Assembly (NCBI GenBank): GCA_963841435.1
Contig: CAWJCS010000005.1
Coordinates: 704,001 to 768,000, forward strand
Length of the DNA stretch: 64,000 nt
Reading direction: 5' to 3'
DNA from: an uncultured delta proteobacterium
GTDB taxonomy: Bacteria; Myxococcota_A; Polyangia; Polyangiales; Polyangiaceae
Part shown: positions 5,115 through 36,302 of the stretch, in pieces
How the letters are laid out: each line of letters opens with the position of its first letter
Position numbering within the stretch: position 1 is the first letter of the stretch
The notes under the pieces: model-generated
Databases searched by the model: none
Seen by the model: only the letters and a program-made list of their open reading frames with translations
Told to the model about the DNA's origin: nothing
Program-made: the position numbers and the translations under genes

Positions 5115-6311
5115 TCAGGGCGCCGGAGCCCGCGCCTCGGCCGCGATGCCGCCCGAGACGGCAGCGCCCTGCCCTCGTGCGCCTTGTGCGGCTCGGCTCT
5201 CTCCGGCCCCGGGATCCTGCACGGGGGCCGCGAGGTCATCACGTCGGATCGAGTACCGGACGAGCGCCCGGAGAGCCTTGTTGCGCTCCACGTTGCCGAG
5301 CACGAGCTTCAGATCCTCGTAGACCGAGGGGTCGACGAGCAGCGCGCCGAGCGTCCCCTTGCCGGCCCGCACGTCGGAGACGATCTCCTTCAGATCCTGG
5401 CTCACGGCGTTGAGGTTGTGCATCAGGGCCTGGGACTGGTCGTCGCCGTAGATGATGCTCCGTGCGACACCGTTGCCCTCCCGGATGCCCTTGAGCGTCA
5501 GGCGGAGCTCGTCGGCGGCACCGCCGAACTGCGCGATGGCCCGCTCCGAGTCCCCCTCGTAGAGCACCTGGTGCACGAGGCCGGGGCCGGTCCGGATCTG
5601 GGCAATCACCTGGTTGACGCCCGCCACCGTCTGGCTGAGCTCGCCCGTCGTCCGCTCGAGATTCGAGGCGATTTTCGACAGGCGCTCGGCCTCCGCGGGG
5701 TCGGAAAGGACGCGGCCGAGGTACCCCTCGCGCCGGTCGAGCGACCCGAGCACGCCGTTCAGCGACGACGCGACGCCCTTGATGTCGGTCGTCAGCCCCT
5801 CGTCCGACAGCGCGGCCGTGGTGCGCTCCAGGTTGTCCACCACCTTCTCCACCTTGCCGGGCAGCGCGGCGAACTTGCCCATCATGGCAGCCAGGTCCTC
5901 GCTCTCGCGCGCCTCGATGGGGCTACCGGGCGGCAGCACGGCGGTCTTCTCCGTGCCAATGCTGATGGAGAGCATCTTGTCGCCGAGCAGCCCCTTTCCC
6001 TCGATGGTGGCCACGGAGTCCTTCTTGACGCGCTCCGCCTGGTCCGAGAGCACGGCGAGGGTAACGTGGATTTTGCGGTCCTCGGTGTCGTTCCCGTAGC
6101 CGACCTTGGTGACGCGGCCGATGTCCAGGCCGCCCATGCGCACCGTCGACCCCACCGTCAACCCCGACACGTCGTGAAACGACGTCTCGAACTCGACCTT
6201 CTTCTTGAAGAGCTGCCGCTCTTCACCAATCAAGAAGATCACCCCGCCGATCGCCATCATCCCGGCGAGGACGAAAGCGCCCACTTTGTATTCGCGGCTC
6301 TTTCTTGCCAT
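5115..6311 (-). CDS. mlaD: MlaD/MCE-family lipid transport protein with long helical C-terminus
   Basis: KVGAFV TM helix; F.DVSGL.VGS.V.MGG..IGRV and GLLGDK MCE motifs; GKGTLGAL..D..VY. Confidence 0.88.
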   Translation of the reverse strand: MARKSREYKVGAFVLAGMMAIGGVIFLIGEERQLFKKKVEFETSFHDVSGLTVGSTVRMGGLDIGRVTKVGYGNDTEDRKIHVTLAVLSDQAERVKKDSVATIEGKGLLGDKMLSISIGTEKTAVLPPGSPIEARESEDLAAMMGKFAALPGKVEKVVDNLERTTAALSDEGLTTDIKGVASSLNGVLGSLDRREGYLGRVLSDPAEAERLSKIASNLERTTGELSQTVAGVNQVIAQIRTGPGLVHQVLYEGDSERAIAQFGGAADELRLTLKGIREGNGVARSIIYGDDQSQALMHNLNAVSQDLKEIVSDVRAGKGTLGALLVDPSVYEDLKLVLGNVERNKALRALVRYSIRRDDLAAPVQDPGAGESRAAQGARGQGAAVSGGIAAEARAPAP

Positions 6312-6499
6312 ACGAGCGTCGAACAAGTGTTGCGCGTTCGGGGCCCGCCGTCACGTCTGCCCTTCACCACCCCCATTCCCGCGGGTCTTGCCTGCTCGAG
6401 GACCGCTTTTCCGTGACGGGCGATTCGAGCGCGTGTCTGGCTTCTTCGGCCCGACACGGCGCAAGTCGTTCGGCACCGCCCCGTGGTAAGTCCGTCGCC

Positions 6500-7894
6500 A
6501 TGCGGCTTTCCACGCTACTCGCGCCCGACATCAAGCGCATCCTCGAGGAAGATCCAGCGCAGGTGTACGACCTGCTCGACGAGATCCATCCCGAGGACCT
6601 CGCCGATCTCGTGAGCGAGCTCGAGCCGCACCAGGCGGCAATCTTGCTCGGGCGCATGCCGGCCGAGGGAGCCGCGCCGATCTTCGAGCGTCTCGAGGAG
6701 CACGAGCAGGAAGAGCTCGCCGAACACATGAGGCCGGAGTCGGTCGCCCGCATCGCGAGCGAGATGGCGCCCGACGATCGCGCGGATCTGTTCTCGATCC
6801 TGCCTCCCGGCGTCGCCGAGGACGTGCTCGAGAACCTCGCGAAGGTCGATCCCGAGGCCGCCGAGGACGTGCGCGAGCTCGCCAAGTACCCAGAGACGAC
6901 CGCCGGTCACTTGATGACGACGTTGTACGTCTCGGCACCGCCCACGGCGACGATCGCCCAGGCGTTCGACGCCATTCGCCTGCACGCCGAGGAGACCGAC
7001 ACGCCGATATACAGCGTGTACGCCTTGTCCGACGACGAGAGGCTGGTCGGCCTCGTCCCCCTGCGTGACCTGATCGTGGAGTCGAAGAACGGCACGGATC
7101 AACCCATCGGCGAGCTGATGCACACGAACTTCATCACGGTGCCGCCGGACATGGATCAGGAGGAGGTCGCGCGCCTCATGGCAAAGTACGACACCAACGC
7201 GATGCCCGTGGTCGACGGCGACGGCGTCTTTTTGGGCATCATCACCATCGACGACATCGTCGACGTGCTCACGGCCGAGCAGACCGAGGACGTGCAGAAG
7301 ATCGGCGGTGTCGCGCCCCTCGAGGAGCCGTACTTCCAGACGAGCTTCGGAGCGTTCATCCAGAAGCGCGGCGTCTGGCTTTTGGTGCTGTTCTTCGGCG
7401 AATTCTTCACACAGATGGCCCTTCGCCGACACGATCGCGTGCTGAGCGCGATCCACGGCGCCGCGTACTACGTGCCGCTGCTCATCAGCGCGGGCGGCAA
7501 CTCGGGCTCGCAGTCGTCCACTTTGATCATCCGTGGCCTCGCGGTGGGCGAAATCAAACCGGGCGACTGGTGGCGCATTCTCTGGCGCGAGGCGGGCATG
7601 GGGCTCGTGCTCGGCACGGGGCTCGCCATCATCGGCTTTTTCCGCGTGCTCATGTATCCAGACCAGCACCTCGATTTCGCAACGACCGTGGGGCTTGCCA
7701 TCGTCGGCATCGTGTTCGCGGGCTGCACCATCGGGGCGATGCTGCCGATCCTGCTCCGGCGTCTCGGGGTCGACCCGGCGACGAGCTCCACGCCGTTCAT
7801 CGCGAGCCTCGTCGACGTGACGGGCATCCTCATCTTCGTCTACATGGCGCGCATCCTGATGAGCGACGTGATCGCCGCCTATCCGTCGCACTGA
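6500..7894 (+). CDS. mgtE: Magnesium transporter MgtE
   Basis: MgtE N domain (HPEDLAD, MAPDDRAD), YPETTAGHLM, CBS pair, GGNSGSQS, DPATSSTPFIASLVDVTG. Confidence 0.96.
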   Translation: MRLSTLLAPDIKRILEEDPAQVYDLLDEIHPEDLADLVSELEPHQAAILLGRMPAEGAAPIFERLEEHEQEELAEHMRPESVARIASEMAPDDRADLFSILPPGVAEDVLENLAKVDPEAAEDVRELAKYPETTAGHLMTTLYVSAPPTATIAQAFDAIRLHAEETDTPIYSVYALSDDERLVGLVPLRDLIVESKNGTDQPIGELMHTNFITVPPDMDQEEVARLMAKYDTNAMPVVDGDGVFLGIITIDDIVDVLTAEQTEDVQKIGGVAPLEEPYFQTSFGAFIQKRGVWLLVLFFGEFFTQMALRRHDRVLSAIHGAAYYVPLLISAGGNSGSQSSTLIIRGLAVGEIKPGDWWRILWREAGMGLVLGTGLAIIGFFRVLMYPDQHLDFATTVGLAIVGIVFAGCTIGAMLPILLRRLGVDPATSSTPFIASLVDVTGILIFVYMARILMSDVIAAYPSH

Positions 7895-7904
7895 GTCGCA
7901 CTGA
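7885..7904. repeat. Perfect 10-bp tandem duplication GTCGCACTGA x2 spanning the mgtE stop codon
   Basis: Seen directly: GTCGCACTGA at 7885-7894 and 7895-7904. Confidence 0.9.
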
Positions 7905-8290
7905 TCGGTCGAGCGCCGGGCGTCGCAACCCGCGCGCGCGGAGCGCCGGACGGCGGCGCGCAGCGGCGAAGCGGGGCGCGGCGGGCGCAACGCGTCGCGC
8001 CACGTTCTTTTCCGCCGGAATACTTTAGCTTCGATGAACTGGAACCGCTTCCGGAAGTTGGCCTCGGGGGAGCAACGGAGTTGACAATCCGGGGACGGGC
8101 GTGGTGGGGGCGCGAACGCCCGAGCCTAATTTGGCTCTTTCGTGCTCCTCGGCGCGCCCCCACGACCCGGGGCCTCCCCAAACTCGTCACGTCCCGGACT
8201 CCTTCTGGCCGACCGCGCCGGGGTCAGAAAGAAACGATAATGAAAGTCGCCTTGCCAAGGTGCGAACCAGGTCGGAGATTAAGCAACAAC

Positions 8291-10703
8291 ATGGCTTTCA
8301 GCACGCGCCTTTCGCTCCTCTGCTCCACCGTTCTCCTGGTCTCGGGCATCAGCTGCAGTACGGGTGTCGACAAAGGCAAGGGCTTCGACGACAACGCGGG
8401 CGGAACCGGTAACAGCGGTGGAACCAGCGCTGGCAGCGCGGGGATCCGGCCGGGTGGCGGCAGCGGCGGCATCTCCGTGGAGAGCGCCGCTTGCGGGGAC
8501 GGCAAGCACCAGGACGGCGAGCAGTGCGACGACAGCAACAAGAACGACGGCGATTGCTGCAACTCGTTCTGCAAGGTCGAAGCAGACTGCGAATGTCCAG
8601 AGGTCGGGGCCTGCATGAGCTTCACGGCGTGCGGCGACGGCAGGCTCACGAGCGCCGAAGCGTGCGATGACGGCAACACGGTGGATGGCGACGGCTGCGC
8701 CGCCGACTGCAAGACGGTCACGCCCGGCTGGCAGTGCCGCGTGCCCGGAAAGAAGTGCGTCCCGTTCTGCGGCGACGGGCAGATCATAGGCGGCGAGAAC
8801 TGCGACGACGGCAACAACGTCTCGGGTGACGGCTGCTCGGCCACGTGCCTCATCGAGCCGGGTGCGACCTGCACCGGCACGCCCAGCGTGTGCACCACCG
8901 CGATGTGTGGCAACGGCATGAAGGAAGCGGGCGAGGGCTGCGACCTCGGTCCGCAGAATGGCCTCTTCTACGGCGACGCGACGGGCTGCTCGAAGACGTG
9001 CACGCAAGAGCCCAACTGCCGGCCCAGCGGGACCACGCAGGCCTGCTCCACCGCGTGCGGCGACGGCAATGTAGACACGCCCGACGGCGAAGAGTGCGAC
9101 GACGGCAACGCCTTGAGCGGCGACGGCTGCTCCGCCGACTGCAAGATCGAGGGCGGCTTCACCTGCACCGACGAGGAGAAGCCGGACACCGAGCCGTGCC
9201 CGAGCAACCCGAGCCTGCAGTGCCTGGTGCTCCCGGTCACCTATCGCGACTTCGACGGACAGCAGGCCGGCTCCACCGGTCACCCCGACTTTTTCTACAT
9301 GGGTGCCGCCAGCACCGCCGGCACGCCGGGCAACATCGGCACGAAGACGGCATGCGTCCCGAACGCCAGCGGCGCCAAGCTCCCGTGGGCTGCGGGCGAC
9401 TCGTGCCCGAACACCGACGCCGTCGGGCCGTGCACCGGCATCGCGGCGGCGGCGCTCAACGCCATGGGCAAGCCCGCGCTCGCCAAGGACACCTGCCCGT
9501 GCGTGTTCACCGACTGGGATCAGACCGGCGTGCTCACGGGCGTCACCGGGGTGCAGCAGTGCTGGGTCGAGAACGAAGGCAGCATGCGCGACCGCATCGA
9601 CACGACGGTCAAGGTCGTGAAGGACGCTACGAGCTTCGCCCAGTGGTACACGACCTCGACCATGAGCACCGAGTCGCACGGCACGCTCGAGCTCGCCGAC
9701 ACGGGCGCCGGCACCTACCAGTTCTCGAGCAGCGTCCCGGGTGCGGCCGCAGGCGCCATGGGCAGCACCGTCTCCGACGACATTCACCAGAACTGCCTCG
9801 GCACGGCGACGCCCCTGCACAGCGGGTTCTTCCCGCTCGACGGCAGCACGGGCACCGGCTCGACGACGCTCTGCAACCTCTGGCCCTACTGGAAGGCGGG
9901 GCTCACCCCGGCCAACTGCACGGCGGGCGCGGGCAACACGATCCTCGCGCAATGGGATCCGCTGGCGGCCTGGGACGCTTGCCCCACGCTCGGCGCGGGC
10001 GGCGGCTGGGTGCCGAAGTCGGACGGCACCGGCACGGCGCTACAAGGCGTGGCGCACGACTTCTACTTCTCGACGGAGGCGCGCTATCTCTTCCGCTACA
10101 CCGCCCCCGCGCAGCTCGCGTTCTACGGCGACGACGACGTTCTGGGTGTTCGTCAACGGCAAGCTCGCCCTCGACCTCGGCGCCCCGCACGAGCGCCTCT
10201 CCGGCACGGTCATGATCACCGACACCGCCTTCGGCCTCGAGGTCGGCCGCATCTACGAGATCGCCGTCTTCCACGCGGACCGCCACCCGCGCGAGTCGAA
10301 CTACCAGCTCACGCTCTCCGCCTTTGCCACACAGAAGTCGGCGTGCGAGCCGCGCTGCGGCGACGGCGTCGCGACCCTGACCGAAGAGTGCGACGAAGGC
10401 GCGAACAACGTGGACGGCGTCTACGGCGGTTGCAGCGCGACCTGCCACTTCGGCCCGTTCTGCGGCGACGGCAACACCGACACTCAGGTCAACCCCGACA
10501 CGGGCTTGCCCTACGAGCAGTGCGACAAGGGCCGCGACAACGTCAACGTGTACGGCACCGTGGGCGGCTGCTCGCCGAGCTGCCAGATCACGCCCGCCTG
10601 CGGTGACGGCATCATCGACAGCGCTTTCGGCGAGACCTGCGACGACGGCGCCATGAACGGCCAGGGCGCCTGCGGCCTCGACTGCACGAAGATCGTCCTC
10701 TAA
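8291..10703 (+). CDS. Lipoprotein with myxobacterial Cys-rich repeats (DUF4215-type) and a fibro-slime/PA14 domain; split by a +1 indel at ~10140
   Basis: Lipobox-like GISC; repeated CGDG...E.CDDGN...GDGCS..C units; YRDF...HPDF; FSTEARYLFRY...GDDD|VWVFVNGKLALDLG..H. Frames join if one T at 10140/10141 is removed. Confidence 0.88.
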
Positions 10704-28244: not shown

Positions 28245-30302
28245 CTAGTCGACGAGCTTCGAGAGCAGCCGGACGTAGGACGCCTGGTAGTAGATGGCAG
28301 GCTCGGTGAGCTCCCAGGACTTGTCGTACGGGTTCGACGGCTCGTAGCTCGTGTTCGAGTCGAGATAGGCCTTCTCGGGCGGCTGATCGCGGACGGGAGA
28401 CTTCGCGCAGGCGTGCTCCTTCGGGTCCTGACCCTCGCAGTAGCTCTTGTTGGGGCCGCCCGTGACGTAGCCTGGCGCGGGACCGAGCTCGGAGGTGCGC
28501 GCGTTGTCCCACTTGGGGTCCTTGTCGCGAAACCACGTGTGATACGCCTCGTCGGCGCAGGCGTCGCCACCCACGGCGTACATGTTCGTGAGGTAGACGA
28601 GCTGCATCGGGTTGACGCCGTGGAACGAGCTCACGATGCCGGCGACCCGCTCCTCGATGCTCGCACGCGCCGCCGGCTCGACGAGCCCGTGCTGGACGAG
28701 ATCGTAGTTGGTGTTGCCGAAAGCCGCCCGCGCGTTGTTGCTACCCCAGTGGTAGGAGTCCTTTCGCATGTATGCACGGTAGAGATCGAGCTCCGGGCGA
28801 AACCCGTAAATCTCGACACTCGCCGCCTGGGCCTTCTTGCGCTCGACGATGGCCTTCTTGGTGGCGGGGTCGGCCTTCGGAAGATCTGCGTAGTAGAGCA
28901 GGGCGTCGCCCTGGCTCTGGTCATAGACGGACCAGCGGTCGTCTTGGAACGGGCGCGTCTCGGTGAAGTGGGCGTTCACGTAGTCGCCGTAGGCGGCGTC
29001 ACCCGTGAGCGCGAACAGGTACACGGCAGAGGCGACGGCAGCCTGGTCTTGCTCCTTCTGCGAGCGGTCGGCGTCGCCCGACTTGATGGTGCCGTCGTCG
29101 CAGGCGTCGCTCTTCGGATGGGTCTGGTAGTACTGCCAGGCGCTCTTCGCGCGCGCGACGAGCTTCGGGACCTCGGCCTTGAAGCGCGGGAACCGCTCGA
29201 GGACGAGCGCGGCGTGAGCGAGCTCCCCCGCCATGACGATGGTCGAGGAGGAGCAGGGCTCCGGGTAGTAGTAGCGCAGGAATTTGCTCTGATCGGGCAC
29301 GGGATCGCCATACTCGACGTTGCCCATCTTGATGAGCGCACCGCCCTTCAGGTCGGCGGGCTGCATCTTCTTCAGCCACTCGAGCTCGACCACGATTTCG
29401 TCGATGAGGTCGGGCAGCCCGTTGCCGGATTCGGGGATGCCGAAGTCGTCGCCGAAGGTCTTCGGACGCTCCTCGTAGGCCGTGAGAAGCTGGTGAAACG
29501 CGTCGTTCGAGAAGGTCACGTACTTGTCGGTGTCGCCGGCGTCCCACCAGCCGCCGCTGAGGTCGCGCGCGGTCTTCGGGTTTTCGCGATCGGTAACACT
29601 GCGCGCCTCGCGGTCCTGGCCCTTGCCGACGTAGTCCGCGCCGAGCGACCAGCAGCGCTTCCCGACGCACGAATACGGCGGCTTCTTCGCGAAGTTCGCG
29701 CGATTGAAGTAGAAGGCCTTGAATGCGCTGACGAGCACGCTCCTGTAGACGTTCGCGGCGATCTCGAAGGGGTGGGAGCGGACGGCGTTCTTCGAGTCGA
29801 ACACGTAGTAGAGGCCCGGCTCCTTCAGGCTCGAGAAGTCGAACCAGGCGCCGCGATCGCCCGCCGTGTCGTCGAGCGCACCGCCGTTCCAGGGCGTGCT
29901 CGGCGCGTGGAAGACGACCGCGCCGTCCGACCACTTGCGAACCTCGAGCTCGGGGCCCGGCGAGTACGCGTCGGCCGCGTTCCAGCCGACCTCGGGGTTC
30001 ACGAGCACGGCGACCTTCTTCATCTCGGGCCGGTAGCCGAACTGATCGACGACGATGTAGCGCTGCAAGGTCACGGCGAGGCCCTGGCCGGGCGGCGGCG
30101 AAACGGGAGGCGGACCCTTGGGCGCTGCCGGATACGGAAACGACGCTCTCGTCGAAGGGGCTCTAGCCGTGGGCGCGGGGCTCGGGGTCGCGGCGGGCGG
30201 CGGGGCGGCGGGCGCGGCCGCGGGCTCGGGCGCCATGCAGCCGGAAAGCACGAGCGGCGGCAGCAGCCGGGCGACGAACGGCAGACGGAGGGAACGGGAC
30301 AT
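28245..30302 (-). CDS. Glycoside hydrolase family 9 (endoglucanase-type) lipoprotein with an N-terminal Ig-like domain
   Basis: Lipobox VLSGC; VDQFGY.P...K.AV (Ig-like N domain); DLSGGWWDAGD; IPESGNG.PD..DE; PGYVTGGPN; WELTEPAIYYQA (catalytic Glu). Confidence 0.93.
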   Translation of the reverse strand: MSRSLRLPFVARLLPPLVLSGCMAPEPAAAPAAPPPAATPSPAPTARAPSTRASFPYPAAPKGPPPVSPPPGQGLAVTLQRYIVVDQFGYRPEMKKVAVLVNPEVGWNAADAYSPGPELEVRKWSDGAVVFHAPSTPWNGGALDDTAGDRGAWFDFSSLKEPGLYYVFDSKNAVRSHPFEIAANVYRSVLVSAFKAFYFNRANFAKKPPYSCVGKRCWSLGADYVGKGQDREARSVTDRENPKTARDLSGGWWDAGDTDKYVTFSNDAFHQLLTAYEERPKTFGDDFGIPESGNGLPDLIDEIVVELEWLKKMQPADLKGGALIKMGNVEYGDPVPDQSKFLRYYYPEPCSSSTIVMAGELAHAALVLERFPRFKAEVPKLVARAKSAWQYYQTHPKSDACDDGTIKSGDADRSQKEQDQAAVASAVYLFALTGDAAYGDYVNAHFTETRPFQDDRWSVYDQSQGDALLYYADLPKADPATKKAIVERKKAQAASVEIYGFRPELDLYRAYMRKDSYHWGSNNARAAFGNTNYDLVQHGLVEPAARASIEERVAGIVSSFHGVNPMQLVYLTNMYAVGGDACADEAYHTWFRDKDPKWDNARTSELGPAPGYVTGGPNKSYCEGQDPKEHACAKSPVRDQPPEKAYLDSNTSYEPSNPYDKSWELTEPAIYYQASYVRLLSKLVD

Positions 30303-30387
30303 CGGCTCTCCTGGCTGGGGAAGATAGGGGCGCGCAGGATAGCCCAGGAGTCCGGTGCGCTCGCAAGCGTCGAGGCCGTGGCCGCGC

Positions 30388-30999
30388 TCAGAGCCCGATG
30401 CGCACGGCAACGCCGACGTCGAGCGAAGGCTCGGGGCGATCGTGCGTCACCCAGACCATGGGCTCGAGGAGCATCAGCTCGAGCACGGCGCTGTCGCTGA
30501 TGACGCAATCGATGCCCGCCGAGAGTCGCAGCGTGGGCCCGTTCCTGGGCAGGAAGCCGGCCCCGAAGCGCAGCGGCACGCCGAGCGCCGGACCCGGCAG
30601 GGGCAGGCGGTAGAAGAACGACACCTCGGGCAGCACGTTGTGCGCGCGACCTTCCTTGCCGCGCAGATTCGCGTACGAGACACCCAGCTCGAAGGCGCCG
30701 CGCGGCGTCCACGCGAACCCGAAGCGCGCACCGACGAGCTCGTTCACGAACTTCCCGCCGCGCAGCCCGAACGCCGTCGTCTCGGTAGGGACGAGCTGGT
30801 AGCGAGCCTCCATGCCGGTACCGCTCGCGGCGGGAGGAGCTTCCGGCGCCGTGGCAGCGGGAGGCGAAGGCTCGGCCGCGGCGACCCTGGGTGGCGCCGG
30901 CGAAGAGGCCGCGGCAGGAGGCGGCGCGGACTGAGCGAGAGCGCGCGCCGGAGCAAGCGCGAGCAGGAGCACGAGGGGCGTGACACGGCGACGAGTCAT
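30388..30999 (-). CDS. Small outer-membrane beta-barrel-like protein with a Pro-rich linker
   Basis: Signal peptide (..ALA-Q), Pro/Ala linker, then amphipathic strands (GARFGFAW, FELGVSYA, EVSFFYR, RLSAGID, DVGVAVRIGL); ATGA overlap with the upstream cytochrome gene. Confidence 0.65.
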   Translation of the reverse strand: MTRRRVTPLVLLLALAPARALAQSAPPPAAASSPAPPRVAAAEPSPPAATAPEAPPAASGTGMEARYQLVPTETTAFGLRGGKFVNELVGARFGFAWTPRGAFELGVSYANLRGKEGRAHNVLPEVSFFYRLPLPGPALGVPLRFGAGFLPRNGPTLRLSAGIDCVISDSAVLELMLLEPMVWVTHDRPEPSLDVGVAVRIGL

Positions 31000-33002
31000 G
31001 GTGCGTGTGCGGGGGCGGCGCCTCCGGCAGAGAGCGCCGCCTCGGCAGCGGCGAGCAGCATCCTCGCATAGCTCGGGTTGTGGACGTCGGCGGCGGGATC
31101 CTCGAGCACGAGCTTCACGTCGCGAAGAGCGCGCCCAAGCGCGACGTCGGGCGGGCGGGCGGCACCCGTCGCGTGCGGCGGCTCGCCGTTCCGGGGTGTT
31201 TGGCGTGGAGCGCCGAGCCGTTCAGCGAGGTCGCGCGCGCGGGCCGCGAGCGTCCGGTCCCGCGCGGGAGGTGCAGCGTGGCACGCGGCGCACGCGGCGG
31301 TTCCGGCGGCGAACGCATGGTTCGCACCGCGGCCGAGACCTTCGGGGCCTTCCGCGTGACACGAGAGGCAGCCCTGCGAGGCCGAGGCGTGGGGTGCGGT
31401 ACCTGAAAGCGCCTCGCCCGTCTTGGGATCGACTCCGCCGCGGCCGAGCATGAGCGCCGCAGCGCTTGCCTCCGGCGGGCCCTCGGCGTCGGCGGGCGCG
31501 TGGCAATTGAGGCAGACCCGACTCGCCCCGGCGAGGCCCTCGGGCAGCGCACCAAGCGCGGCCGGAACGGGGAGCGCCCGGAGAAGAGACGGGCGCACGC
31601 CGGACGTCGAGCTCCGCTCGGTCTCGTGGGGGTGCACGTCGTGGCACGTGGCGCAGCCTAGACCGAGCGTCGTGTCGTCGGGCGGGCGGTGGGAATCACG
31701 ACCGAGCGCACCGAACGTCGTGTGACAGCGCGCGCACGGCGCCGCGCGAGTCCGCGGGTCGTGATCGGCTGTCGCCATCCTCGAGGCTTCGAGCGCGCGA
31801 ACGTGGCCGTAGCTCGGAGGCGCGTCGTGGCACACCGCGCAGACGCCACGGCCGAGCAGCGCGAAGCGCGAGCTCTGGTCGGGTATGGCGCTCGGGCCGT
31901 GACACGCGAGGCAGCCCACGCCACCGAGCCGTCGGAGCGCCCGCGGCAAGTCGGAAAACGCGTGCGGTGGCGCGAGGTCGAGCTCGTCCTTGACCTGCTG
32001 GAAGCCGCCGTCGCGCGTGCCGGGCTCGCCGGTCGTGTGGCAGCGGAGCGCGCAGCCCGGATCCGCGAGGGCACGCGGCCCGTCGAGATCGCGCGCATAC
32101 GCGTGCGTCATCGGCGAGCTCGCCGCGCTCCGCGCAATCGTGCCGTGGCAGCCCGCGCGGCCGCAATCGAGCGGGGTCTGGTCGTACGCGCCGCTCTCGA
32201 TCACCGTGCGGCGCCCTCGGCCATCCTCGACCACGAAGCGTCCGGTGACGTCCGGCACGAGCTCGAAGAGCGAGCCGACCGCCCGAAGGTCGGCACGGGA
32301 GCCGTCCGGGACTTCGCTCAGGCGCAGCTCGTCGCCGCGCAGGAGCACCGGGTGGGTCACGGCGACGTTGCCGAGGCCGCTCGCGCGCGAGGTCGCCGTC
32401 ACCTCGAGCGTGCTCCGGTGCGTGCGACCGTCACGCAGGCGAATCATGAGCTCGATGGCCGTGCGCCCGACCTCGCCCGCGGCAATCGGCACGATGCCGT
32501 GGCCGACGTGTGGGGCGAGCGAACCGGGCGGAAGCGTGCGAAGACCGAGCGCGCGACCGCCGTCCGCCACCGCCACCGACCCGAGCGGCTCGCCACCGAT
32601 CACGGCCAGCGTGGCGCTCGCGTCCGCCGCGCTCGGGCAAGCGGGCTCGGCGCGGATCTCGAGCGGTTCATCGAAACCAAGGACGCGGACGCGGGGTCCG
32701 GCAGCAAAGAGGGCGCGCAGGCGGTGGCGGACGACGGTGCCGGGAGTCGGTGCCGGTTCTACGTCGATGGGACAGGCGAACGGCGCCTCGAGCGTGACGC
32801 GCGACGGGGCAGCGAGCCCGAGCAGCAGACGCCCACCCTGCTCGTGTCGCTCGGCCAGCGCGCTCGCCGGCTTCACCTGGACCTCGCCGAGGTCGAGCCC
32901 CGGCTCGGCTTCGAGCCACACCCAAAGCGTCACCGCCGGGTGCGGCGCGCAGCCGAGCACGAAGAGCATCGTGAGCAGCAACAGCGGCGTCGCCGTGCGC
33001 AT
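30996..33002 (-). CDS. Multiheme cytochrome c lipoprotein (up to 9 hemes)
   Basis: Lipobox VLGC; CGRAGCH, CALRCH, CLACH, CAVCH, CARCH, CATCH, CLNCH, CLSCH, CAACH; C-terminal D.AADVHNP.YA..LL helix motif. Confidence 0.9.
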   Translation of the reverse strand: MRTATPLLLLTMLFVLGCAPHPAVTLWVWLEAEPGLDLGEVQVKPASALAERHEQGGRLLLGLAAPSRVTLEAPFACPIDVEPAPTPGTVVRHRLRALFAAGPRVRVLGFDEPLEIRAEPACPSAADASATLAVIGGEPLGSVAVADGGRALGLRTLPPGSLAPHVGHGIVPIAAGEVGRTAIELMIRLRDGRTHRSTLEVTATSRASGLGNVAVTHPVLLRGDELRLSEVPDGSRADLRAVGSLFELVPDVTGRFVVEDGRGRRTVIESGAYDQTPLDCGRAGCHGTIARSAASSPMTHAYARDLDGPRALADPGCALRCHTTGEPGTRDGGFQQVKDELDLAPPHAFSDLPRALRRLGGVGCLACHGPSAIPDQSSRFALLGRGVCAVCHDAPPSYGHVRALEASRMATADHDPRTRAAPCARCHTTFGALGRDSHRPPDDTTLGLGCATCHDVHPHETERSSTSGVRPSLLRALPVPAALGALPEGLAGASRVCLNCHAPADAEGPPEASAAALMLGRGGVDPKTGEALSGTAPHASASQGCLSCHAEGPEGLGRGANHAFAAGTAACAACHAAPPARDRTLAARARDLAERLGAPRQTPRNGEPPHATGAARPPDVALGRALRDVKLVLEDPAADVHNPSYARMLLAAAEAALSAGGAAPAHAP

Positions 33003-33625
33003 CACGACTCCTCCCCGCAGCGACCACGATCGCAACGCTCACCGCCGCAATCGCGATCGAGCCAGCAGTCGGGCGCCCGGTCGCTCCGCGGCGGCACGAC
33101 GGCGCTCTTGCGCTCGTCGCACACGCGCTCGATGCCGCGCTCCTGGTCGAAGCGGCAAGCGTATTTTCCAGCACGGCCGCCGGGATAATCGGGTGACGGG
33201 TCAACACAGACGCGCTCGCCCGCCGGGTGACCGGCACCGCGCCGCAGGCCGCAGGAAAACCCGCGATCGGCCGGTGCTCTTACGACGCCGGCTGCCGGCT
33301 CCCCGCCGGCACACCAGACGACGCCGTCGCGCTCGGCGCAGCGCCACTCACCGTCGTCCGGCAGGCGGACGTGACGCTGGACGCAGCGACCGCCGTCGCA
33401 GACGAAGTCGCTGGCTTCGTCGGTGCGGGGGCGCGAGCGCCGGGCCCCGCCCACGCCGGTCTCGAGATACCCGAGCGCGGTGGGCGGCGGCAGGCACCGT
33501 GCGACGCGTCCGCCCGGCGCCGCGCAAAGCTCGCTCTTGCCCCGTGCGCCGGGCTCGCGAGCACACCCCGAAAGGAGAAGCAGGCCGAGCAGGGCTCGGA
33601 CCGGGCTACTCGCGCGCGACCGCAC
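33002..33625 (-). CDS. Cys-rich lipoprotein of unknown function
   Basis: GTG start; LLGLLLLSGC lipobox; 14 further Cys; TGATG overlap with the cytochrome start. Confidence 0.75.
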   Translation of the reverse strand: MRSRASSPVRALLGLLLLSGCAREPGARGKSELCAAPGGRVARCLPPPTALGYLETGVGGARRSRPRTDEASDFVCDGGRCVQRHVRLPDDGEWRCAERDGVVWCAGGEPAAGVVRAPADRGFSCGLRRGAGHPAGERVCVDPSPDYPGGRAGKYACRFDQERGIERVCDERKSAVVPPRSDRAPDCWLDRDCGGERCDRGRCGEES

Positions 33626-34490
33626 ACCGAGACCCTCGCCGCCGCCGCCCGAGCGCTGCCAGACAAGAGAGCAAGACGACGATCGAGCCTCGTGCTCCAG
33701 CGCGACGCGACACGGAGCAACCATCGAACCACGGCGACTCGATCGTCTCCTCGCACACCTCGACGTTCCCGCCCCCCGAGACCCAATCGACGAGGTCGCG
33801 TGTGACGGCGGCGAAGCAGGTCCTTCCAGCGTGCGTGGTCGAGCGAGCGATGCGAAGCTTGCCATCCTCGGGAAACGGATAGATCCCGATCTGCTTCGGC
33901 GGGCCGCTCTGGCCCGGGCTCGGATGCTCGGTTTCGAAGAGCAGCACGGCGAGCAAGCTTGGGCTCGCGTCGTCCTGCGCATGTCCGAGCTCGAAGTCGA
34001 AGAGGTAGCGATCCTCGAGCTCGTCCGTGCACGGATCACGGTCGCGAGACAAATCCCAGCTCGCGCCCGCGAGCCCGGAAAAGCGTGGTGACTCGAGGTC
34101 ATCCGAGCTGCCGACGCTGAACCCAATCTCCTTGGAGCGCCCCGAGCCGGTCGCGCTGCCGCGCAGGCTGGGCCACGCGAGCCGGTACGAGCCAGCCGAG
34201 AGGGGCAAGAGGGGCACGGCACGCAGGAGCCCCTCGGCCTCGTCGTAGGTCACGTCGACCGGCTGCTCGCCGAGCGTGGGCGACGTGAGCGTCACGGGCT
34301 CGCCGGCGTAGGCGGCGGGTGCGGCGTAGTGTGCCGATAATCGCGCATTCCGTGGGACCATGGCCGCTCCGTCCGGCGGGTAGGTGGCGTCGATATCGGG
34401 CACGCCGCACGGCGCACCCCAGGCGGGGAGCGCGATGCTGGCCGCTGCGCTCGCCAGAGCGACGAGCGTCGCGCGGGGAGCTCGCGTCAA
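33606..34490 (-). CDS. Ig-like (Big_5-type) domain protein with a MYXO-CTERM sorting signal
   Basis: TTG start overlapping the upstream stop (TTGA); signal peptide; TYPPDGA.MVPRNA; C-terminal GCSVS...IVVLLSCLAALGRRRR. Confidence 0.8.
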   Translation of the reverse strand: MTRAPRATLVALASAAASIALPAWGAPCGVPDIDATYPPDGAAMVPRNARLSAHYAAPAAYAGEPVTLTSPTLGEQPVDVTYDEAEGLLRAVPLLPLSAGSYRLAWPSLRGSATGSGRSKEIGFSVGSSDDLESPRFSGLAGASWDLSRDRDPCTDELEDRYLFDFELGHAQDDASPSLLAVLLFETEHPSPGQSGPPKQIGIYPFPEDGKLRIARSTTHAGRTCFAAVTRDLVDWVSGGGNVEVCEETIESPWFDGCSVSRRAGARGSIVVLLSCLAALGRRRRGSRCAVARE

Positions 34491-35188
34491 TCGCACCTCA
34501 CGTCGTCGCAATGTCCGACCATGTCCGAGCGACTGCCGTCGCCGTCGAGGTCGTAGCTGTCGAGGCAGCAATAGCCGTTGTCGAGGCAGCACTGCTCGAG
34601 CTCGCGCGAGGCCTTGTGCTGTCGAGCGATCCCTGCACATTCTGGAGGCGGCTCGGCCTCGCGGCACGGGCCGAAGCTCTGCCCGTCCCCGGCGCACTCC
34701 TGCTCGCCCCAGAAGGTGCAAAACGAATGCTGGCAGATCCGAACGCCGCCCGGCATGCACACCTCGCAACGTCTGGGGCATGCGCTTTGGCTGCCGGCGA
34801 TGCAGTAGCGAAAGCCGCCGTTTTCGCAAGCCTCGGGCGGCAGATCGTCAACCACGCCGTTGCAGTCGTCGTCGACGCCGTTGCAGCTCTCCGGCGACGG
34901 GACGCAGTGCTCGACGGGCGGCTCCTCGGGCTCGGGCACGACCGCGGCGTCCATCGGGACCTCGGCGTCGAGGTCGGCGTCCGGCGGCATTTCGGCATCG
35001 ATGCCGGCGTCCTCCGGCGCCTCGGCGTCCGGCGTTACCTCCGCGTCGCGCCCACCGCTCGAGCCTGCGTCGAAAACCGGGCGCGAGCCGCCGCCGCCAG
35101 GGACCTCGTCGTGATCGCCCGGCTCGAGCCCTGTCCGGCCGCAGCTCAGGACCAAAAGGAGCACGAAGGCCGCACCAACCCAGCGCAC
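34487..35188 (-). CDS. Cys-rich lipoprotein with an acidic DA-rich linker and ESCNGVDDDCNG repeat motif
   Basis: LLLVLSCGRTGL lipobox; DAxxP linker; ~19 Cys; DLDGDG Ca-binding-like motif. Start uncertain (GTG 35188 preferred). Confidence 0.8.
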   Translation of the reverse strand: MRWVGAAFVLLLVLSCGRTGLEPGDHDEVPGGGGSRPVFDAGSSGGRDAEVTPDAEAPEDAGIDAEMPPDADLDAEVPMDAAVVPEPEEPPVEHCVPSPESCNGVDDDCNGVVDDLPPEACENGGFRYCIAGSQSACPRRCEVCMPGGVRICQHSFCTFWGEQECAGDGQSFGPCREAEPPPECAGIARQHKASRELEQCCLDNGYCCLDSYDLDGDGSRSDMVGHCDDVRCD

Positions 35189-35198
35189 CGGCCAAGCG

Positions 35199-35214
35199 TG
35201 GCACGCGTTTGGCT
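35199..35214 (+). promoter_or_regulatory. Putative sigma54 -24/-12 promoter
   Basis: TGGCACG-CGTT-TGGCT with GG-N10-GC spacing, in the 48-bp divergent gap. Confidence 0.5.
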
Positions 35215-35236
35215 TTCGAGGGACCCTGATCGGTCC

Positions 35237-36302
35237 GTGCCTTCGAGGATCATTCATTTCGCATCGGCGCTCCGCCTGGCAACGGGGGCCTTTGCATATT
35301 TCGTGCTCCTCGCCGGTACCCCCCGGGAGGCGGCGGCGCAGGCAGCCGCGCCACCGGCCCCAACCGCAGTTGACACCCACCCTACAACCGCAGGTCACGC
35401 CGAGCCCCCGGCTGGGCCGACCTTGGCGCCCGCACCACCCCCCGCACCGGTCCCCGCGCCCGCTCCCAACGCGCCACCACCGCCAGAGCCGGCAGCACCC
35501 GCCCCAACACCGGCGCCACCCGCGCCGCCCGCGCCCGCTGCGGCCGTCACGCCGCGAACGACTGCCCCCATCCCGACCGCGACGCCCACGCCCGTGGCCC
35601 CGAGCGGGCCCATCGAGCCCCCGCTCCCGCCAACGCCTCCGCAAAACCCGCTTCCCCAGAGCGAACGCGCACGCAACGCGCACGCCGATCGCCTCCTCAT
35701 CGCACCGACGGCGGAAACCAATCCGAAGGGCTCCTTTTGGGGCACGAGCTACGAGATCCTCTTTTTGCAGGTCGGCTACGCGCCGACCGACGACACGCAG
35801 ATCTCGCTCAGCGGGGTGCCACCGCTCGGCGAGGATCCCATCGTCCCGCTCGACCTCAGCGTGAAGACCGTGGCGCTGAGATCGCCGAGCCTCAACATCG
35901 CCGTCATGGCCTCGGCGAGCGGGCTCGTCTCGGGCGAAGCGTCGGGCTTCATCGGTCGCGCTGGAGCGGCCGTGACGCTCTGCGACCCACCCGATGCCTG
36001 CGCACGCACGCTCACGCTAGCGAGCAACGTCCTGCTCATCGGCCCAGCATCGCTCCTTTTCACGGGGGCGGGCGCGACCATGCGGGTGTCGGATTCTCGC
36101 GACGTTGCTGTTCGAGGTCGACTCGGCGCTGCCGCTCGGCGACGCGGTCGGCCAAGCTCACGGGCTGCTGGGCGGTGCGGGCGTGCGCCTTTCGGGGCCG
36201 CGTTTCGGCGTGGACCTCGCGCTCCTGCGCGGCGGCAACGTGGGCGGCTCGCTCACGCCGTTCATCCCGTACGTCGTCGCGACGTACCGCCACCTGCCCT
36301 GA
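35237..36302 (+). CDS. Pro-rich secreted protein with a probable C-terminal beta-barrel domain; split by a +1 indel at ~36094
   Basis: Signal-like N-terminus (..AAA-Q), long Pro/Ala linker, DRLLIAPTAET.PKG, beta-strand pattern. Removing one T at 36094/36095 gives ...MRVSDLATLLFEVDSALPLG...VATYRHLP. Confidence 0.7.

Follow-up and report, generated by a model that had tools for sequence, protein, structure and literature searches.

Two groups of described systems are among the closest points of comparison for the gene cluster reported here, which lies in a 64-kb stretch of DNA (hereafter the window; positions 704,001 to 768,000 of contig CAWJCS010000005.1, assembly GCA_963841435.1) from an uncultured delta proteobacterium of the Polyangiaceae. 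The cluster consists of five overlapping minus-strand genes, designated A to E, and a divergent gene, F (Table 1); B encodes a nine-heme cytochrome, and C encodes a small Cys-rich lipoprotein. OcwA (PDB 6I5B) is described, in the part of PMC6703420 available to us, as a nine-heme cell-surface terminal reductase of Thermincola potens that belongs structurally to the NrfA family, contains two open-coordinate hemes and reduces nitrite. Both OcwA and B contain nine heme-binding motifs and a C-terminal helical region with a conserved histidine in a “VHN” motif, and both are extracytoplasmic and attached to the cell envelope. However, the host of B is a diderm myxobacterium, whereas that of OcwA is Gram-positive. 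The hemes of OcwA are numbered by CXXCH motifs in the same part of PMC6703420, whereas B has one Cx3CH and one Cx4CH motif. Additionally, B has a lipobox, three N-terminal immunoglobulin (Ig)-like domains and an obligate Cys-rich lipoprotein neighbour.

The second group, MtrCAB and the Geobacter porin-cytochrome systems, resembles the present cluster in that a multiheme lipoprotein is encoded together with outer-membrane β-barrel genes and electron exchange at the outer membrane is plausible. In contrast to these systems, the putative barrels encoded here (~140 aa in A and ~210 aa in F) are too small to hold a cytochrome, as an earlier account of the locus (the preliminary description) had already remarked of A, and no MtrA-like periplasmic decaheme gene is present in the window. 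The N-terminal part of B is formed by three Ig-like domains, with the MtrC/MtrF domain PF22113 under its cut-off, and the partners are disulfide-rich lipoproteins and an Ig-like sorted protein. A search of the literature on Myxococcota multiheme cytochromes and on extracellular electron transfer in Polyangia (titles and abstract starts) finds no paper on the B family among those listed. Our preferred reading, to which we give slightly less than an even chance, is that the cluster encodes a conserved multiheme redox complex of the outer envelope of Polyangia, with B and C as the core and OcwA as the closest functional analogue.

The window belongs to a genome with a GC content of 69%, in which long spurious open reading frames (ORFs) are frequent. 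ORFs A to E occupy positions 30388-35188 and are chained by overlaps; in all five, the GC content is 0.80-0.84 at the third codon position (GC3) and 0.53-0.65 at the second (GC2), and each has homologues at the matching relative position in other genomes. Since such GC3 values are found in a 69% GC genome and homologues occupy equivalent positions elsewhere, the five ORFs are credible as genes. The E stop and the D start share TTGA at 34487-34490, and the other possible D starts (GTG 34496 and TTG 34511) overlap E as well. D and C overlap by 20 nt (D stop 33606, C start GTG 33625), the C stop and B start form TGATG at 33000-33004, and the B stop and A start form ATGA at 30996-30999. The start of E is either ATG 35257 or GTG 35188 and may be the former. 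Lipoboxes are found in B (LFVLGC), C (LLLSGC) and E (LLVLSC), and Sec-type signal peptides are found in D and A. Genes A to E are real, translationally coupled and syntenic. The preliminary description had reported five overlapping minus-strand genes, an export signal on every product, a nine-heme cytochrome lipoprotein and two Cys-rich lipoproteins, and the ORFs, every junction that it described, the signal sequences, the nine conserved motifs of B and the invariant cysteines of C and E (10 and 18) bear this out. Its count of five genes has to be extended, because the conserved divergent gene F also belongs to the cluster.

In B, seven CxxCH motifs, one Cx3CH motif (at 317) and one Cx4CH motif (at 280) make up the nine heme-binding motifs, eight of which are retained in 71/71 aligned homologues and the last in 67/69. 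Six histidines and two methionines that are conserved outside the motifs are candidate distal ligands (Table 1); with eight candidates for nine hemes, one heme could be open-coordinate or otherwise ligated. Four Pfam families of the cytochrome c7/c3/NrfB-like type (PF14522, PF22678, PF14537 and PF09699) exceed their cut-offs on B. PF22113 reaches 20.8 bits against a cut-off of 30, and the NCBIfam NrfB and DmsE models score far under theirs. In a profile search against PDB sequences, the top match of B is 6i5b_A (E 4.5e-4, 21.9 bits), aligned over three collinear segments; one of these covers the C-terminal helix “...DPAADVHNP.YA..LL.AAE”; the matches to cytochrome c554 (E 0.049) and NrfA (E 0.11-0.19) are near chance. 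An AlphaFold2 model built from 31 sequences predicts three β-sandwich domains at residues ~25-270 with a predicted local distance difference test (pLDDT) value of ~90, and helices at 583-595, 620-634 and 643-658 within the heme domain, where confidence is low. Foldseek and VIA searches with the model match tandem Ig-like proteins only, through the Ig-like part; in the heme domain the model is too poor for a fold match. The heme domain appears not to be an orphan but distantly OcwA/NrfA-like, and from its motifs and profile match we read B as a lipidated Ig-like stalk that probably bears a nonaheme domain remotely related to OcwA and NrfA, with family membership tentative.

Table 1. Genes of the cluster, with coordinates in the window, and conserved residues of B that are candidate distal heme ligands
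Feature	Position	Strand	Description
F	~35237-36299	+	signal peptide, Pro/Ala-rich linker, ~210-aa beta-rich domain; apparent frameshift here
E	34487-35257 (or start 35188)	-	lipoprotein, low-complexity linker, ~140-aa domain with 18 invariant Cys
D	33606-34496	-	secreted; CopC-like Ig domain, FN3-like domain, Cys/TM/Arg tail
C	33002-33625	-	small lipoprotein, 207 aa, 10 invariant Cys
B	30996-33002	-	lipoprotein; three Ig-like domains (~25-270), nine-heme c-type cytochrome domain (~275-660)
A	30388-30999	-	signal peptide, Pro/Ala-rich linker, ~140-aa probable 8-stranded outer-membrane beta-barrel
H457 of B			kept in 71/71 homologues
H562 of B			kept in 71/71 homologues
H641 of B			kept in 70/71 homologues
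H610 of B			kept in 68/71 homologues
H400 of B			kept in 67/71 homologues
H538 of B			kept in 62/71 homologues
M298 of B			kept in 71/71 homologues
M409 of B			kept in 68/71 homologues

The partner most closely tied to B is C. Locus counts here and below refer to the best 80 of 85 loci from a wider scan of species-representative genomes, in which hidden Markov models (HMMs) from our own alignments were run over six-frame ORFs. C lies directly upstream of B on the same strand in 71 of the 72 loci that have at least 700 bp upstream. None of the 112 database homologues of C has a Pfam domain, every name given to them is “hypothetical protein”, and a PDB profile search with C returns chance-level matches only. 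Ten cysteines are invariant in the family, as are the motifs RLPDDGEW and EPAAGVV. Another two cysteines, C76 and C81 in the numbering of the window C, occur as a pair in 31/36 aligned homologues, are jointly absent in 5/36 and are never lost singly, as would be expected of a disulfide that is dispensable.

A complex of B (residues 19-668) with C (residues 60-207), each with its own alignment, is predicted with a score of 0.62 (runs 0.65, 0.56 and 0.62), compared with 0.00 for the top of three controls. The mark applied to this score is reached by 116/157 solved complexes and 2/215 mismatched pairs, and is approximate here, since own alignments were used. At least 82% of the contacts agree between the runs, and the partner pLDDT is at least 78. 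On the side of B, the predicted interface comprises residues 272-303, which surround the Cx4CH motif, and 337-364; on the side of C it comprises residues 84-93 and 109-119. The B 337-364 segment is the invariant LPRALRRLGGVGC stretch, which runs into heme motif 3, and the interface segments coincide with the invariant motifs of both families. The prediction supports binding of C to B, and we know of no comparable complex. Complex modelling of the cytochrome with the barrel and the lipoproteins had been proposed in the preliminary description; it was carried out for B and C only, the pair for which the interface is predicted.

The distribution of the genes was followed in a sample of 41 related genomes and in the wider scan, which overlap in that several loci appear to be common to both. 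In the sample, B is matched in 19/41 genomes at E ≤ 0.001 and strongly (E ≤ 1.4e-14) in 17. The order E-D-C-B-A with a divergent F occurs in six same-genus loci, and C-B only in four, of which one (G016) belongs to the same genus and the remaining three are from other families. The neighbours of C-B in four other-family loci were considered as further members and set aside as mutually unrelated. The 80 loci of the wider scan carry labels such as Polyangiaceae, Polyangia, Polyangiales, Myxococcales and Sandaracinaceae. D is present in 31/60 loci with at least 2.7 kb upstream, as is E, always together with D, and the two adjoin in all 31 loci holding D; A lies downstream of B in 38/70 testable loci, and F is found in 27/57. 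When enough flank is available on both sides (53 loci), the layout is F|E-D-C-B-A in 25, E-D-C-B-A in 3, an E-like gene with C in 1 and C-B only in 24. The full order is kept down to ~37% B identity. Gene-order conservation had been named in the preliminary description as a test of its proposal, and the order recurs as it predicted.

A FastTree phylogeny of 71 B sequences, including that of the window (ten of fewer than 520 aa were dropped; midpoint-rooted, with the split read without support values), separates a C-B-only clade from a full-cluster clade. Nine C-B tips fall within the full-cluster clade, all with less than 1.7 kb of upstream flank and hence uninformative. The exception is a full-cluster locus, L095, among C-B loci near the root. 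In three genomes of the C-B type (G028, G033 and G036), an overlapping E-D pair is found on another contig or elsewhere. A strong D match (E ≤ 1.6e-27) is present in 13/41 genomes, all of them among the 17 with strong B, and the 22 genomes that lack a B match contain two weak D-like matches only. No genome of the genus has A or D without B. The cluster is assembled from two older two-gene modules, C-B and E-D, which are unlinked in approximately half of the lineages, and in one deep clade they were combined with A and F as a stable operon. This corrects the preliminary description, in which the five genes were put forward as one module. A remnant of the cluster is present in genome G006 (L033, C290, ~5900-6960). 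Two pieces of B (residues ~237-308 and ~490-546) survive there, contiguous with the C-terminal parts of F and A, and E, D and C are missing between them, which suggests a single large deletion.

E has 18 invariant cysteines within ~140 aa. The MopE-type motif PF11617 scores 19.5 bits on E, under its cut-off of 27, and a PDB profile search finds chance-level matches and no relative. For D, an AlphaFold2 model from 47 sequences (pLDDT 87.5, predicted template modelling score 0.77) places a CopC-like fold at residues 32-131, with 5icu_A (Z 11.9, root-mean-square deviation 2.1, 96 aligned) and 6nfq_A (Z 11.7) as matches, and an FN3-like domain at residues 133-258 (Z ~9-10). The N-terminal domain of D is also found repeated in giant proteins. 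CopC binds copper through an N-terminal His brace. Although residues 32-131 superpose on CopC, D differs from CopC/PcoC periplasmic copper proteins in that it has no N-terminal His for the brace: mature D begins A-P-C-G, and a search for copper ligands finds no conserved His there. The NCBIfam CopC model matches one D orthologue only, at E 0.22.

The C-terminal tail of D consists of an invariant Gly-Cys, a predicted helix at 269-285 and an RRRR stretch. Neither G259 nor C260 varies among 7 orthologues; in 47 family members, C260 is invariant and G259 is kept in at least 90%. The tail has the tripartite layout of MYXO-CTERM proteins, which are sorted by myxosortase MrtX (TraA, for example); the part of PMC11980579 available to us describes this surface sorting by a tripartite tail of Cys, transmembrane (TM) helix and Arg. 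However, the tail is not recognised by the family HMM, TIGR03901, at E ≤ 10, and the MYXO-CTERM label that D had received in the preliminary description is not upheld, although the layout is similar. In the same genome, 32 of 61 six-frame TIGR03901 matches exceed the cut-off (20 bits), so the myxobacterial system for surface sorting is present in this organism.

Judging from several sequence features, A probably forms a small barrel in the outer membrane. A orthologues end in R(V/I/L)(A/G)F, with an aromatic last residue. PF13505 is found in 46% of the members of the Atlas neighbour cluster of A (score 0.96), and one A orthologue gives sub-threshold matches to PF13505 (E 0.071) and TIGR04565 (E 0.035). 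The preliminary description had presented A as a small barrel of ~140 aa; the mature size is as it stated, and the barrel fold is probable. F, whose beta-rich domain ends in YR(Y/H)(V/L)P, is likewise a probable outer-membrane barrel by its sequence; it matches no Pfam family, and Atlas gives only unnamed Myxococcota clusters. PDB profile searches with A and with F yield chance-level matches only. In 6/6 syntenic same-genus loci, F occupies the same place as one unbroken ORF, and in the window it has an apparent 1-nt frameshift near 36090, which reflects either a true lesion, making F a pseudogene here, or an error of assembly. Paralogy between the modules was considered and discarded on hhalign probabilities of 10% for A with F, 5% for C with E and 0.2% for D with the B N-terminus. 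None of A, C, D, E and F is in a curated family, in keeping with the term “uncharacterised” that the preliminary description had applied to the module.

The lipobox is recognised by pattern in 28/31 B, 29/36 C and 9/10 E sequences, and lysine at position +2 occurs in 1/28, 3/29 and 0/9 of these, respectively. In Myxococcus xanthus, +2 Lys is found on 8/12 inner-membrane lipoproteins, according to the part of PMC3222651 available to us. The rarity of +2 Lys in B, C and E argues for outer-membrane targeting if the M. xanthus rule holds in Polyangia, and we infer on this basis that the three are likely outer-membrane lipoproteins.

As the preliminary description had noted of an inner-membrane quinol oxidase, no quinol dehydrogenase is encoded within the 64 kb, and a Pfam search of the 36 other ORFs of the window likewise finds no cytochrome b, cytochrome maturation gene, second cytochrome or large porin. 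The same ORFs were examined as sources of a local redox partner for B and discarded as housekeeping genes only (SecDF, tRNA synthetases, IF3, PdxA, threonine dehydratase and similar). Elsewhere in the genome there are ORFs with 22, 13, 12, 12, 10, 8 and 8 CxxCH motifs. On contig C2 (~146.9-155.8 kb), ORFs with 22, 12, 12, 4 and 3 CxxCH motifs form a cluster that includes a NapC/NirT-family gene (PF03264 E 3e-13) and that may serve electron export in this genome. Directly downstream of A, a GH9 endoglucanase-like lipoprotein with a CelD_N domain is encoded at 28245-30305 on the minus strand (PF00759 E 3e-38); it was considered as a member of the system and excluded, being syntenic in none of the related loci. 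At 7895-10603 on the plus strand, a 903-aa ORF of disulfide-rich secreted type contains a DUF4215 Cys-rich repeat (E 4e-24). Upstream of one other-family C-B pair (L021, G037:C10, 11974-15830), a DUF1552 (HXXSHH) gene lies beside a DUF1592/1588/1595/1585/1587 gene, a pair that we take to be typical of Planctomycetes-type cytochrome-domain proteins.

In the proposed complex, C would dock on the heme domain of B beside the first (Cx4CH) and third heme motifs, and the three Ig-like domains of B would act as a stalk that keeps the OcwA/NrfA-like heme domain off the membrane. D may be lipid-anchored through its C-terminal Cys tail, and together with E it would make up another disulfide-rich pair, which would serve to scaffold or dock the complex. 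A and F, as small outer-membrane barrels, would anchor the complex and not sheathe it. Electrons would be supplied by periplasmic or inner-membrane cytochromes encoded elsewhere, for which the NapC/NirT-type gene in the cluster of 12- to 22-heme proteins may be relevant. At the outer face of the envelope, B would then give electrons to an extracytoplasmic acceptor or receive them from a donor. A more specific version of this proposal, which we regard as unlikely, is a porin-free electron-transfer apparatus specific to Polyangia, in which a stalked OcwA-like nine-heme lipoprotein at the surface is capped by C and held by E, a C-terminally lipidated D and two small barrels.

Several results weigh against an outer-envelope redox complex. 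The modelled heme domain of B is poor (pLDDT ~35-60) and lacks the hemes, and at 21.9 bits the link to OcwA is weak. Surface exposure rests on the sorting rules of a distant myxobacterium, and no trans-outer-membrane electron route is detected by Pfam among the 36 other ORFs of the window. TIGR03901 misses the D tail in 7/7 D proteins at E ≤ 10, and D is absent from the 61 matches of the six-frame genome scan. All 80 loci come from metagenome-assembled genomes, with none from an isolate or cultured carrier. C-B stands without the other genes in about half of the lineages, A-family barrels occur in unrelated contexts in 6 genomes of other families that lack B, and the cluster is dispensable, given its decay in G006 and the apparent frameshift of F in the window. 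NrfA family members, moreover, are often enzymes of soluble substrates, which fits the main alternative, namely that B-C is a membrane-anchored, periplasm-facing enzyme that, like relatives of NrfA, HAO, OTR and MccA, acts on a small soluble substrate such as nitrite, hydroxylamine or a sulfur oxyanion. The active site would then be the Cx3CH or Cx4CH heme or a heme with open coordination, and E, D, A and F would merely be co-regulated in one clade. The best relatives of B, weak as they are, are OcwA, cytochrome c554 and NrfA, and OcwA reduces nitrite and turns over hydroxylamine according to the part of PMC6703420 available to us. The shortfall of one conserved His/Met candidate relative to the nine hemes, the 24 testable loci with C-B alone and the lack of an encoded trans-outer-membrane conduit in the window point the same way. 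However, B contains no CXXCK or other known catalytic signature, three Ig-like stalk domains with a lipid anchor are unusual among enzymes of the NrfA/HAO/OTR/MccA type, E-D accompanies B in genomes even where the two are not linked, and the six-gene order is stable over a deep clade. We consider such an enzyme a serious candidate, though on the improbable side.

Two further explanations appear considerably less probable. The direction of electron flow may be the reverse, with an outer-envelope oxidase taking electrons from external Fe(II), Mn(II) or reduced humics and passing them inward; M298 and M409 could provide high-potential His/Met hemes, and the remaining anatomy would be as in the outer-envelope complex, but no Cyc2-, MtoA- or multicopper-oxidase-like gene is found in the window, and we hold this to be quite unlikely. 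It is equally improbable, in our judgement, that there is no single system and that C-B, E-D, A and F are independent envelope genes brought together by chance in one lineage. The modules are indeed separable and have no detectable homology or shared domain, and elsewhere A homologues lie beside GT2 glycosyltransferases in 3/5 A loci examined. Nevertheless, starts and stops overlap at every junction, one order is kept in 25 of 53 loci across the range of B identity given above, A and D are limited within the genus to genomes holding B, and the G006 remnant contains parts of F, B and A in one stretch. An uncharacterised surface redox module, as the preliminary description interpreted the locus, is partly supported.

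Polyangia myxobacteria are abundant in soils and sediments and are usually regarded as aerobic predators and polymer degraders. Many very large multiheme cytochromes are encoded in the source genome and in its uncultured relatives, and the operon described here is a widespread, clade-stable module that includes five non-heme partner families with no curated description. If the complex is active at the surface, extracellular electron transfer would be known from a wider range of organisms and architectures, and families C, D, E, A and F would gain a testable role. A porin-free apparatus, if it exists as outlined, would represent a third route by which diderms exchange electrons with the outside, beside the Mtr-type and Pcc-type conduits. 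The B-C pair provides a compact target for expression and structural work.

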